In this document: positions 27,071 to 33,000 of the stretch, in pieces | How the letters are laid out: each line of letters begins with the position of its first letter | Numbering within the stretch: the stretch's first letter is position 1 | Assembly (NCBI RefSeq): GCF_003018255.1 | Contig: NZ_CP027441.1 | Reading direction: 5' to 3' (one strand) | Length of the DNA stretch: 64,000 nt | Source of the DNA: Escherichia coli | GTDB lineage: Bacteria; Pseudomonadota; Gammaproteobacteria; Enterobacterales; Enterobacteriaceae | Position numbers: made by a program

Positions 27071-30000
27071 TAACGGTGGGTTACCCCCAAACGAATCGGA
27101 AAATCGATACTGGAAAAACTCTACCCCGGTGGCCAGTTTTGTTAAGCACGTTAAATTTTGGAGGATATGCCCTCCAAAACAATAATCTGTATGAACAACC
27201 AGAAGACTTTCCTTAATACTGTAAATGCAGCTAAATCAACAATTGCAAAACCGCCCCAAGCTCTTCTGAAAGATAAAAAGCACCAAATACATGAGCAAAA
27301 ATCATACATTCAACACCATTCAATAACATTTAGTTAAGAAAAACAACAACGAATCGATTCAGCAAACATTTTCAACAAGAAAAATACTTTATATATCCTT
27401 TCCGGTTTTATAAACGAGACCTGAGCTCTCTTGGAGAGACAAATGTAAATTTGTCACACAGACGACAGCAGCCGGAACATTACAAATGCCGCCTGACAGA
27501 CCAATAACAACAGTAATGATGCTGAATTTGTTTTCATTGAGGAAATGACATGCACCAATACCTGCTTTTTTTACTGGGACTTACCCCACTTTTGACAATG
27601 ATCATTTTGATTCTGAAAGTCAAAATGCCCATACATTATGCCGTACTCAGCACACTCTTTATTACACTGATTCTTGCAATTTTGTTCTGGCACACACCAG
27701 TTCAGGACCTGGGCTCTGCTGTTGTATACGGAGCAATCAAAGGTCTGTGGCCGATAGTAATAGTCATACTTGCGGCCATTTACAGCTATAACCTGATGAA
27801 TGCGACAAAAAGCATGAACATTCTGCGAAATGTTCTGGCCGGTGTCAGTGATGATAAACGTATCCAGGTGCTTCTTATCTCATGGTGTTTTGGTGGATTT
27901 CTTGAGGCGGCGGCTGGGTACGGTACAGCTGTAGCAATCCCCATTGGTATACTCATTGCTCTGGGCTTTAACCCTCTAAAAGCCGCAATTGCATCATTGG
28001 TTGCTAATACAGTACCTACCGCGTTTGGTGCTGTCGGCATACCTGTATCAGTACTTGCTGAACAGGTAAATTTACCCGTAACAACCCTCAGTGGGACGAT
28101 TATTCTTCAGTTGGCAGCGTTCAACATTCTGCTTCCCTTCGTTATAGTCGCTATTATTGGGGAAGGCCTGAAGGCTATACGAGGCGTTGGGTTCATGACC
28201 TTAATGTGCGGTGTGAGCACATTAATCCCACAGTATCTGATGGCTGTTTATCTTGGCGCAGAACTTCCGGCTTTCGCTGGAAGTCTGGTCAGCCTGATCG
28301 TTATTGTCATTATGGCTAAAAGCCGTAAAGAAAAAACAGAACCAGAATTTCTTATTGAGGTTTCAGGAGATAGCGCTGGTGCACTTTCATATTCCCGTGG
28401 GGAGTTGTTCCGGGCCTGCTCAATCTACATCCTGATTTTTCTGTTTATTCTTCTTTGCTCTCCATTGTTCCCGACTGTAAAAAGTGCAGTATCTCAGGTT
28501 GCTTCGTCACTCAGCTTCCCTCTGACTGACGGCAACAATCTGTCTATGACGCTCGAATGGATCGCAACCCCCGGTGTTCTGATCATCATTGCCAGCGTTA
28601 TTGGCGGATTGATTCAGAAAGCATCCCTGTCATGCCTGTTAAACGTATTTGTCAGTACGGTAAAACAGCTCAAAAACTCCATTATTGCTATTTCTGCAAT
28701 TGTCGCTATGGCAACGGTAATGGATATTTGTGGGTTAATTGGCACACTGGCACAGAGCCTTGTGGATCTGACAGGTGGAGCCTACCTCTTCATTGCTCCA
28801 GTTATAGGTGCTCTTGGTACATTTGTTACTGGCAGTGACACAAACTCCAACATTCTGTTCGGTAAGTTGCAGACTACTGCGGCTGAAAAGTTGCACGTAG
28901 ATCCACTCTGGCTGGCTGCTGCAAACACATCTGGCGCGACCGGTGGCAAGATGATTTCTCCCCAAAGTATTGCTATCGCTGTTTCTGCCACACGTATGGA
29001 TGGTCAGGGCAGCGTCATTATGTCCGGGACACTGAAATACTGCTTTGTCTATATTGTTATCCTTGGACTGAAAATAGGCCTGATCTACCACCTGTTCATG
29101 GTCTGAGAAAAGAGCAACAAAAGGACATGGGATATTAATCAACAGGAGATATTTCTGTGAATGTTAACTTTTTCGTCACCTGCATTGGTGATGCTTTTAA
29201 ATCCCGGATGGCTCAAAACAGCGTGCTGTTACTGGAGCAATTGGGTTGCAATGTCCATTTTCCCGAAAAACAGGGATGTTGCGGTCAGCCAGCGATAAAT
29301 GGCGGTTATGTTCGTGATGCCATCCCGGGCATGAAAAACGTCATATCTTCGCTGGAAGAGAATGACTGGCCAGTTATATCTCCCGCGGGATCATGCACCT
29401 ACACGATAAAAAATTATGCTCATTATCTCAGTGATGAGCCTGAATGGGCTGCTCGGGCTGAAAAAGTGGCTGAACGTCTGCATGATTTGACATCCTTTAT
29501 CGTAAATCATCTCGGCATTACTGATGTTGGGGCAAGACTCAATGGGCGTGCAGTATTCCATCCCTCCTGCAGCCTTTCCCGTAAGCTGGGTATAACCAGA
29601 GAACCGCTTTTGCTACTTGAGAATGTGCGGGGACTTGAACTGCTTCCGTTTCACGCTCAGGAGACATGTTGCGGGTTTGGCGGCACGTTCTCCGTAAAAA
29701 TGGCAGAGATTTCTGGCGAAATGGTGAAGGAGAAAGTCGGGCATATTATGGATGTTAAACCTGATTTTCTTATCGGAGCTGACGCCAGTTGTCTGCTAAA
29801 CATCGGCGGTCGGCTTAGCCGTGAAGGGCATCCTGTAAAAGTGATGCATATTGCTGAAGTCCTGATGCACAGATGAGGTAAACAGAATGTCTTTGAAAAC
29901 AAGTGATATCAGGTTTAAAGAGCGTATCCGTATTCAGATTCAGGACCCGATCATGCGAAAGGCTGTCGCTAACGCACAGGAGCGCATAGGGACTAATCGA

Positions 30001-33000
30001 CAGAAAATGGTTGATGAACTGGGGCACTGGGAGGAATGGCGTTCACGTGCAGAACAAATTCGTCGGCATGTTCTGGAAAATCTTGATGCCTATTTGTATC
30101 AATTGTCCGAAAAGGTTACTGCGAATGGCGGGCATGTATATTTTGCCCGTACCAGAGAGGATGCAACCAGTTACATACTGAAGGTGGCGAAAGAAAAAAA
30201 CGCCAGGAAGGTTGTTAAATCCAAATCAATGGTGACTGAGGAAATTGGCATGAACGCCGTTCTTCAGAAAGCCGGGATACCCGTGATTGAAACAGACCTT
30301 GGGGAATACATTCTTCAGCTTGCACACGAACCGCCATCACATGTGGTTGTTCCGGCAATACATAAAGATCGCCATCAAATCCGCAGAGTGTTAAACGAAC
30401 ATCTGGGGTATGAGGGACCAGAAACTCCTGAAGCAATGACATTGTTCATCCGTGAGAAAATCAGACAAGATTTTCTCAGTGCAGAAGTTGGTGTAACGGG
30501 ATGTAACTTTGCTGTTGCAGAAACAGGGTCAGTCTGCCTTGTTACAAACGAAGGCAACGCACGTATGTGCACCACATTACCTAAAACACATATTGCTGTT
30601 ATGGGGATGGAGCGTATTGCTCCGACATTCCAGGAGGTGGATGTTCTTATTACCATGCTTGCAAGGAGTGCTGTCGGGGCCAGACTGACGGGTTATAACA
30701 CCTGGCTTACAGGTCCAAGAGAAGAAGGACATGTTGACGGCCCGGAAGAGTTCCATCTCGTCATTGTTGACAATGGGCGTTCAGAGGTTCTTGGCTCAGA
30801 ATTCAGCGATGTATTGCGCTGTATTCGCTGCGGTGCCTGTATTAATACCTGTCCCGCTTATCGCCAGATTGGTGGACATGGCTATGGCTCAATCTACCCG
30901 GGCCCAATCGGAGCAGTTATTTCCCCGTTGCTTGGTGGCTATGAAGACTTTAAGGACTTACCTTATGCCTGTTCATTGTGCACTGCCTGCAATGGGGTAT
31001 GTCCGGTAAAAATACCTCTGGCACAACTAATACAAACACATCGGCAGGTTATGGCAGAGACCAAAATAACACCATCAACAGAACGCCGTATAACCGGAAT
31101 ATTCAATTACGTAAACAGTCATCCGGCATTGTGGAAAGTTGGCATGATTGCTGGCGCGAAAACAGCCAGTCTGTTCATCAGGAAAGGTAAAACTCCGATT
31201 AGTGTTGGAGCGATAAAAGAATGGACTGAAGCCAGAGATCTACCATCACCTGATGGAGAAAGCTTCCGTAGTTGGTTCAAGAGATATAAAAAAGGAGGGT
31301 AACTTTATGGAAAACAGAGATGAGTTTCTCGTTGCGATCGCCAGAAAGCTTGGCAGAGCAGTAAAACACACTCCCGAAGCAATGCCGGAACCTGTAAATA
31401 CGCTGGCTTCGACACGTTTAACTGAGTTGACATCAGATCAACGCTGTGAGGATTTTATTAAATTTGCTTCAGAAGTGATGCTTGCCGAGTGTGTGCTTGT
31501 ATCACCCGATGAAGCTCCCTCAAAAGCATTAGATCTCTGTTGGAAGTTCGGTTCCGGGCCTGTCATTATCAGTAACGATCAACGGCTGTTTGATACGGGG
31601 ATTGCACCACTTCTACAAAAAGAGATGGGCGCTGTCCTGTGGGCCCCGGAGAAGGGTGAGGAAAATATTCATCTTGCAGAAAAGGCAAAAACAGGTATCG
31701 TTTTCGCTGAGTATGGACTGACCGAATCAGGAGGTGTTGTCTTATTCTCCGCCCCAGAACGAGGGCGTTCAGTAAGTCTTTTACCTGAAGCGTCGGTGTT
31801 CGTTTTACGCAAAAGCACCATTCTTCCCAGAGTGGCTCAGCTTGCGAAAAAACTTCATGGTATGGCTCAAAAAGGACAACGAATGCCTTCCTGTATCAAT
31901 ATAATTGGAGGACCAAGTTCAACTGCCGATATAGAGTTGATTAAAGTTGTCGGTGTTCATGGCCCTGTATATGCAGCCTATCTAATCATTGATGACTGCA
32001 AATAACAATTATCCTCATGCCTGAGCCAATATATATAGTTCCGGCTCAGGCATCATCATTTTTATCTGTTATTTTTCTATCAGCCCCAAATTTTTCCTGT
32101 GATGTCGCATCGGTTGAAAGTCCAACAAGCGCATTAGACGTTAAAGCGTAAGCATCAACGGATGCGCCATATTGACAAAAAACGTGGCGGCCGACAATGA
32201 AAAGTAAGCGCTCCGGTGATGGTTGTCCTGTCTGGCTACAATCGCGTCCATCGATATTAAAGTGCGCCCAGATCCTGGACAACTTATGCTGCCTGACTCA
32301 ATCGATATTGTACCAGGCTAAGACCGCCAAGTTTTTCCTTTATCCTCAATTAATTATAATTGTTTATGTAATCGATGATGTCTTGCTTTAAGCCCTCCAC
32401 ATTTTTATATTCATTGAGGTAATAACATTCTGATTTCAATGTTCCCAAAAAGCTCTCTATAACTGCATTATCAAGACAATTTCCCCGGCAAGACATACTC
32501 TGGACTATGCCGCTATCCTTTAACCATCGTTGCCACCGGGACATCTGATATTGCCAACCTTGATCGCTGTGCAGTATGGGGTTTTCATCTTTCGACAGCT
32601 GTTTCAGCTCATCCGTAAACATAGTCGGCACCATTGAAGGTTGAGAACGAGTAGCGAGGTTATAGGAAATTATTTCTCCATTATAAAGATCCATGATTGG
32701 CGATAAATACAGCTTCTTGCCATTAACTTTAAATTCAGTGACATCTGTAACCCACTTCTCGTTGGGGCATTTTGCATCAAAAACTGATAATCCCGGAAAC
32801 GTACATAAGGGCAGAGGGGCACCACCTTCTGCCCTTTAATAAACAGGATATTATTACTCCCACAGGACTGCCAGTATCAAAAATGCACCTGCAGTAAGCA
32901 TGGCAAGTTTTTCCCATATCATGGGATTGTCATCCCTCTTTTGTTTTCTTTTTCTCATATAAATGATGGTGTTTACTCAGACGGAAGAGTCTTTCGTCTG

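Follow-up and report, generated by a model that had tools for sequence, protein, structure and literature searches.

Contig NZ_CP027441.1 of Escherichia coli (assembly GCF_003018255.1) contains, within the 64,000-nucleotide stretch that we analysed (hereafter the window), a lactate permease gene followed directly by a lutABC-type set of lactate oxidation genes, and the question that this locus raises is whether the set is a captured copy of the chromosomal ykgEFG genes or metabolic cargo acquired from elsewhere, and what it might do amid the virulence genes of a plasmid. Judging from the sequence and its relatives, we consider it likely that the locus is an intact, horizontally acquired lutP-lutABC operon, carried as metabolic cargo in a pO113-type virulence region and acting by the mechanism proposed below. 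In the open reading frame (ORF) listing of the window, four plus-strand ORFs occupy positions 27550 to 32005:

27550 to 29106, plus strand: lutP, LctP-family 2-hydroxy-acid (lactate) permease, 518 aa, full-length match to TIGR00795
29157 to 29876, plus strand: lutA (ykgE/lldE type), Fe-S subunit with two CCG domains (Pfam), 239 aa, GTG start
29887 to 31302, plus strand: lutB (ykgF/lldF type), LUD domain, two 4Fe-4S motifs and LutB_C, 471 aa (TIGR00273, Pfam)
31307 to 32005, plus strand: lutC (ykgG/lldG type), LUD-domain subunit, 232 aa (Pfam LUD_dom)

The intergenic gaps along lutP-lutA-lutB-lutC are 50, 10 and 4 nt, and a Shine-Dalgarno motif lies 7–9 nt upstream of every start. The lutC start at 31307 was taken from RefSeq and from the orthologues (the longest possible ORF begins at 31253), and its ATG is preceded by AAGGAGG at 7–8 nt. 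Antisense ORFs within the four genes are short and unsupported. A generic scan for sigma-70 promoters and terminators gave no enrichment, and inside the genes promoter-like and terminator-like sites are not commoner than in shuffled sequence. The preliminary description of this DNA had taken the permease and lutABC to be one operon, which is borne out by the tight spacing, by the lack of excess internal promoter and terminator sites and by the recurrence of the same gene order elsewhere.

The permease scores 406.9 bits against TIGR00795 (LctP family, TC 2.A.14; cut-off 341.15), with its residues 4–511 aligned to positions 6–527 of the 530 in the profile. It falls short of the equivalog models for LldP (NF007740; 274.5 bits, cut-off 918) and GlcA (NF007249; 249.4 bits, cut-off 1121), and the earlier name "L-lactate permease" thus stands at the level of the LctP family and not at that of the LldP or GlcA equivalogs. 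LutB scores 722.5 bits against the LutB/LldF equivalog TIGR00273 (cut-off 444.8); it contains the Pfam domains LUD_dom, Fer4_8 (a 4Fe-4S dicluster) and LutB_C, and two CxxCxxCxxxC motifs at residues 312 and 362. LutA has Pfam CCG domains at residues 3–85 and 133–216, with CCG motifs at residues 41 and 171, and also resembles GlcF and GlpC. LutC, encoded 4 nt past lutB, matches Pfam LUD_dom (E 1.2e-29) and none of the NCBIfam models. A sequence search of the PDB retrieved no solved LutABC or LctP homologue, only a distant match of LutA to HdrB and HdrC-like ferredoxin segments for LutB, a likeness which fits an HdrBC-like Fe-S electron-transfer module.

With regard to the chromosomal genes, the cassette LutA, LutB and LutC are 77, 83.5 and 64% identical in amino acid sequence to YkgE, YkgF and YkgG of strain K-12, respectively. 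A search with lutABC found matches in 5,218 of 5,426 complete E. coli genomes; the best match was the chromosomal ykgEFG set, at about 72% nucleotide identity, in about 5,100 records, matches at 80% nucleotide identity or more were found in only 223 records, and 116 of all matching places were on plasmids. The neighbours of ykgEFG in K-12 are rclR and ykgH, with no permease there, in agreement with the earlier claim that the chromosomal set has no dedicated permease. In a neighbour-joining tree, K-12 YkgEFG joins Citrobacter (92% amino acid identity), as expected under vertical descent, while the plasmid cassette forms its own deep clade together with a chromosomal island allele, described below, and an allele of "Escherichia sp. 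MOD1", the nearest relatives of this clade being 77–78% identical. The GC content of the cassette is 44–47%, which is lower than typical for E. coli. The preliminary description had proposed acquired cargo, to be abandoned if the proteins proved near-identical to YkgEFG, and had named a phylogeny against the chromosomal copies as a check; the identities given above are far from such a state, and the tree sets the two apart. In our view the cassette is likely a xenologue of ykgEFG, acquired horizontally from an unsampled Enterobacterales lineage and not by duplication. As for an identifiable donor species, none is near enough among the approximately 100,000 species (one genome each) that were scanned with the permease, the best match outside Escherichia having 77% amino acid identity.

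The same scan, followed by tblastn with all four proteins, recovered the order permease-lutA-lutB-lutC in Sutterella and in over 20 species of Enterobacterales, which represent about 15 genera. The genera with this order are Edwardsiella, Pectobacterium, Samsonia, Serratia, Dickeya, Mixta, Kosakonia, Intestinirhabdus, Proteus, Budvicia, Pragia, Limnobaculum, Leminorella and Sutterella. Citrobacter differs in that its permease, although next to lutABC, is divergently oriented. Because the order is so widespread, it is the permease-less ykgEFG of E. coli that departs from the rule, and with the plasmid cassette the layout usual among enterobacteria is regained. The plasmid LutP is 66–77% identical to the permeases encoded upstream of lutABC in other Enterobacterales.

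A second allele is found in the avian pathogenic E. coli strain IMT5155, with about 88% nucleotide identity to the cassette and 93, 95, 95 and 89% amino acid identity for LutP, LutA, LutB and LutC. It lies right after the integrase of a tRNA-Phe island, beside an oppA fragment and hsdRSM, and a paper on sequence type 127 (ST127) uropathogenic E. coli (UPEC) remarked on this island allele as "lutABC ... and lutP permease" (PMC9769692). Homology between the plasmid and the island begins about 200 nt upstream of lutP and ends at the lutC stop codon, and we therefore delimit the cassette unit at approximately 27340–32010. Across all four genes, the two alleles differ at a synonymous divergence (dS) of 0.44–0.67, with a ratio of nonsynonymous to synonymous divergence (dN/dS) of 0.05–0.09 (lutP 0.073, lutA 0.054, lutB 0.055, lutC 0.089). 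Such ratios indicate strong purifying selection on all four genes, part of whose history may predate entry into E. coli, and the dS values indicate that the plasmid and island alleles are old, with probably separate acquisitions. On all the sequence criteria that were applied, the cassette is a member of the LctP and LutABC/LldEFG families and the plasmid counterpart of this published island module of extraintestinal pathogenic E. coli (ExPEC).

The cassette is 100% identical to the corresponding part of pO113 (NC_007365) and of several other plasmids, 160–175 kb in size, of Shiga toxin-producing E. coli (STEC), and the entire window is 99.9% collinear with NZ_CP027451.1. The window is thus the virulence region of a conjugative megaplasmid of the pO113 type, found in STEC negative for the locus of enterocyte effacement (LEE). 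Following the annotation of NZ_CP027451.1, its order is ccdAB, traT, repB, ehxDBAC, sab, insertion sequence (IS) debris and lutP-lutABC, then an IS fragment, three small hypothetical genes, espP, saa, iha, subAB and cdiA. The module as such is already known, in that RefSeq names a lactate permease and LutABC on more than 60 plasmids, which are the very terms of the preliminary description; a literature search found no link between pO113 and lactate genes, although the original pO113 sequence papers were possibly outside its reach. The alignment of the window to NZ_CP027451.1 is interrupted at 8457–8462 with a subject overlap of 32 nt, which points to a small difference in repeat number between the plasmids.

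The cassette is present on 64 PLSDB plasmids (62 from Escherichia and 2 from Salmonella; 61 are conjugative), with alleles ranging from 100% down to 80–90% identity, and in the 40 best of these 64 the annotation gives each of the four genes as intact. Of the 31 plasmids with subAB (49310–50795 in the window), at least 30 have the cassette, as counted within the first 40 of its carriers, while ehxA occurs on 576 plasmids; the cassette is therefore a near-constant component of the pO113-like LEE-negative STEC lineage and not of enterohaemorrhagic E. coli (EHEC) plasmids generally. Matches to the permease gene were found in 960 genomes, but only 312 of these have most of the gene, and among the matches listed most of the other genomes keep just permease nucleotides 293–800 (27842–28349 in the window).

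Regulation of the operon was approached by cross-species footprinting, which located the candidate lutP promoter. The features flanking the four genes are as follows:

27348 to 27363, plus strand: candidate operator of the Cra (FruR) type, AACGAATCGATTCAGC, agreeing with 13 of 16 consensus positions, right half perfect
27390 to 27395, plus strand: predicted -10 hexamer TATATA, at a conserved spacing to the Cra box
27398 to 27512, plus strand: extra 5' untranslated leader of the plasmid allele, about 100 nt, absent from the MOD1 allele and partly present in the island allele
32017 to 32053, plus strand: candidate terminator, a hairpin of 11 bp with a U-rich tract after it (-20.2 kcal/mol, z-score -5.1)

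The Cra consensus is gcTGAAtCGaTTCAgc (PMC5888115), and the fru operators are likewise matched by the palindrome upstream of lutP (PMC4050194). Within the candidate box (27348–27363) the window carries the segment GATTCAGC; the corresponding boxes are TGAAACGATTCA in the island allele and TGAATCGATTCA in the MOD1 allele, each agreeing with 12 of 12 core positions, and the block AAAAATACTTTATA is invariant in the three Escherichia alleles (plasmid, island and MOD1). Of 32 Enterobacterales loci, 31 have a box with at most two core mismatches upstream of lutP, and in 30 of the 31 box-bearing loci a hexamer of the form TATAAx or TAnnnT follows the 16-mer by 25–27 nt, mostly 26. No box was found upstream of K-12 ykgE or at the Sutterella lutP. 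The background density of such Cra-like boxes is 0.15 per kb. Since one match as good as that of the window is expected by chance per 64 kb, the evidence for the Cra box is its conservation. On this prediction, made from sequence only, an operator matching gcTGAAtCGaTTCAgc stands at a position compatible with regulation: the centre of the box would be at about -46 relative to a predicted start near 27402, a geometry like that of the Cra-activated ppsA promoter, whose site is at -45.5. The cassette encodes no regulator, and Cra from the host chromosome is predicted to activate lutP-lutABC at low glycolytic flux. If so, such control would fit a gluconeogenic substrate and would account for the working of the cassette after transfer, although it brings no regulator along.

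We would like to note that this conserved Cra operator is the only new, testable element of the locus; a literature search found no paper that makes such a connection between FruR and the lctP or lut genes. Tentatively, lutP-lutABC may belong to the Cra (FruR) regulon throughout Enterobacterales as a conserved member so far unrecognised, activated in a class-II-like manner from about -46. Needing Cra of the host and no regulator of its own, the cassette could then work in any enterobacterial host, and this portability may explain how a distinct mobile clade became near-universal, and selected, on the megaplasmids of LEE-negative STEC with subAB and saa, a suggestion that we hold with less than even confidence. 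Elsewhere in the window, a second Cra-like 12-mer, TTAATCGATTCA, with one mismatch, occurs at 22303–22314 in AT-rich sequence close to sab and the sab regulator gene, and is at chance level.

The leader at 27398–27512 is single-copy on each of 63 plasmids and occurs on no chromosome. It was considered as a structured RNA or repeat, and this was rejected, as it has no Rfam match, folds with a z-score of only -1.0 against shuffled sequences and is single-copy. At the other end of the operon, the island and MOD1 alleles have their own canonical terminator, a GC hairpin plus a T-run.

Taken together, the cassette is real and probably functional, and its proposed function is as follows. The LctP-family permease would import lactate, by proton symport if it behaves as its family does, and the Fe-S complex of LutA, LutB and LutC would oxidise L-lactate to pyruvate and pass the electrons into the respiratory chain, as we infer from LutABC of Bacillus subtilis, LldEFG of Shewanella, lldEFG/lctP of Helicobacter pylori and YkgEFG of E. 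coli. All four genes would be read as one mRNA that starts at the promoter some 150 nt before lutP and ends at the hairpin past lutC, and host Cra, bound to the operator near -46, would switch the operon on in gluconeogenic growth, when glycolytic flux is low. Support for such a role of related genes comes from a ykgEFG mutant of strain MP1, which lost fitness on L-lactate with nitrate (PMC9701030), and from the lactate user H. pylori, which has lldEFG and lctP genes and in which a permease is likewise linked to lutABC (PMC4117512).

Several observations weigh against this reading. The box of the window allele has CGAA for TGAA in its left half; the generic sigma-70 scan missed the lutP promoter because its -35 element is weak; the loop of the hairpin downstream of lutC is 15 nt long, and this hairpin is not shared by the other alleles; and the trees, made by neighbour joining from concatenated LutABC and, separately, from the permease, carry no bootstrap values. 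E. coli already owns lldPRD, dld and ykgEFG, and the module may therefore be redundant. In mouse colitis models, moreover, ykgEFG was dispensable and lldD important (PMC9701030). Redundancy and dispensability are what one would see if the cassette were a passive passenger, intact but redundant or poorly expressed and kept by its selected neighbours ehx, sab, espP, saa and subAB; its position in IS debris amid virulence genes would agree with this, as would the roughly 650 chromosomes that have only a 508-nt permease remnant, the module having been lost in other lineages. Nevertheless, we think such passive carriage unlikely, since a dN/dS of 0.05–0.09 at a dS of about 0.5 speaks for long-term purifying selection (though much of the divergence may predate entry into E. 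coli), the four genes remain intact in plasmid alleles with nucleotide differences of up to about 5–10%, the block of promoter and Cra box is kept, and the cassette is so regular a companion of subAB.

The substrate raises a separate doubt. The permease passes the cut-off of its family but fails those of the LldP and GlcA equivalogs by far, so its substrate range is deduced from the family, and the module could instead use a different small 2-hydroxy acid (glycolate, D-lactate, glycerate or similar) or have a broader range, the annotation then being right at family level only. The depth of the clade, which is uncharacterised, the resemblance of LutA to GlcF and GlpC, and the failure of the sequence search to return a solved structure for members of the clade or for any LutABC complex leave room for this possibility. 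However, LutB clears the LutB/LldF equivalog cut-off by a wide margin, every characterised LutABC/LldEFG system, YkgEFG included, is specific for L-lactate (PMC9701030, PMC4117512), and the link between permease and lutABC recurs in H. pylori, which uses lactate (PMC4117512); a substrate other than L-lactate, or a broader range, is on this evidence quite unlikely. That the cassette is a simple duplication of ykgEFG captured by a plasmid is suggested by the shared order of the three genes and their shared domain content, but the nucleotide and amino acid identities given above and the separate deep clade rule this out for practical purposes, and the cassette has a permease and a Cra-box promoter that are both missing at the ykg locus; we regard duplication as extremely improbable.

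What an acquired lutP-lutABC operon would mean for its hosts can be stated in modest terms, lactate being a nutrient of relevance in the gut. If the Cra reading is true, the cassette would add lactate use under gluconeogenic conditions, for instance in bovine intestinal content, where EHEC is reported to use L-lactate among other gluconeogenic substrates (PMC4041753), and host-derived L-lactate has been found to raise the fitness of E. coli in inflammation (PMC9701030). By analogy with these cases, a benefit of the cassette for gut colonisation, as proposed in the preliminary description, is plausible, and a conjugative lactate module linked to virulence genes could give LEE-negative STEC a modest gain in fitness in cattle or humans. 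The locus also offers a simple example of metabolic and virulence genes moving together. The module itself is an ordinary operon type, already annotated, and not a new system, and the practical value of the present analysis is mainly negative.

Comparison with named systems places the cassette more closely. The YkgEFG set of E. coli has the same subunits, domains and gene order as the cassette lutABC; it differs in protein identity (as given above), in clade, and in having neither an adjacent permease nor a Cra-like box upstream. LutABC of B. subtilis and LldEFG of S. oneidensis are the founding members of the family, whose domains are the same in the cassette LutA and LutC and whose LutB model, TIGR00273, the cassette LutB passes; according to literature cited in PMC7984374 and PMC11734750, the permease gene of B. 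subtilis is separate and a GntR-type repressor, LutR, controls the genes, whereas the cassette operon opens with the permease gene and encodes no regulator. The lutP-lutABC operons of Edwardsiella, Pectobacterium, Serratia, Dickeya, Proteus and Budviciaceae have the same order, a similar spacing and the same geometry of Cra-like box and -10 hexamer, but are 58–84% identical in amino acids, depending on the protein, chromosomal and not flanked by IS elements, and none is close enough to be a donor. The tRNA-Phe island allele (IMT5155; ST127 UPEC, PMC9769692) belongs to the same clade as the cassette but is chromosomal, ends in another 3' terminator and has a shorter leader. LldPRD of E. coli likewise couples a lactate permease with a respiratory L-lactate dehydrogenase; in contrast to the cassette, its LldD is an unrelated flavoenzyme and LldR a dedicated regulator, and the plasmid permease is below the LldP cut-off.

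The accessory module of pFec10 and strain 165 (LctP, dld and a ykgEFG-like set) is also mobile, IS-flanked and from E. coli (PMC7984374), but its permease gene has 68% nucleotide identity to that of the cassette and is divergent, and dld is included; the ykgEFG copy of pFec10 is close to the chromosomal one, with YkgE at 94% (PMC7984374). On the chromosome of strain 165 (897–7499 of the compared stretch), LctP is divergent from dld and the ykgEFG-like trio, with debris of IS elements and a group II intron on the flanks.

The IS remnants that were earlier said to bound the module on both sides are present, according to the RefSeq calls at 24025–27185 and 32353–32781, and consist of the following:

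24025 to 27185, strand not assigned: upstream IS debris (RefSeq pseudogenes of the identical plasmid, ORFs and an inverted repeat)
24025 to 24459 and 26188 to 26817: IS110-family gene in two parts, interrupted by an IS3-family element
24482 to 24524 and 26101 to 26143: terminal inverted repeats of this IS3-family element, which is 1.66 kb long and lies inside the IS110-family gene
26837 to 27185: IS3-type integrase-core remnant, a RefSeq pseudogene
32353 to 32781, minus strand: IS3-family transposase fragment with both ends missing (RefSeq; ORF 32350–32694)

The identities of these elements are RefSeq pseudogene calls, and the fragments carry stop codons; the nested IS3-family element has imperfect terminal inverted repeats of 43 nt, and its own transposase contains an internal stop. 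A composite transposon was considered and ruled out: the flanks are different IS3-family remnants in opposite orientations with no common repeats, and no direct or inverted repeats of 25 nt or more were found bracketing 27.2–32.4 kb.

Between the cassette and espP, at 32930–33835 on the minus strand, lie three small conserved hypothetical genes of 103, 63 and 121 aa. The 508-nt internal permease remnant, at 86% nucleotide identity, occurs on roughly 650 E. coli chromosomes (an estimate from match counts), mostly ExPEC among the matches listed. In strain ABU 83972 the remnant (6001–6508 of the compared stretch) is wedged among IS fragments in an iha-sat pathogenicity island, which aligns to the window at these places:

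33270 to 34037: segment matching the ABU 83972 island
34339 to 35202: segment matching the ABU 83972 island
45278 to 47690: segment matching the ABU 83972 island

Besides the permease, the parts in common are iha (90%), the three small hypothetical genes (72%) and the beta-domain of a serine protease autotransporter of Enterobacteriaceae (81%), which suggests that the window and the UPEC iha-sat island are mosaics derived from a common ancestral mobile segment. The cassette evidently travelled in this mosaic with virulence genes and decayed in the UPEC islands.

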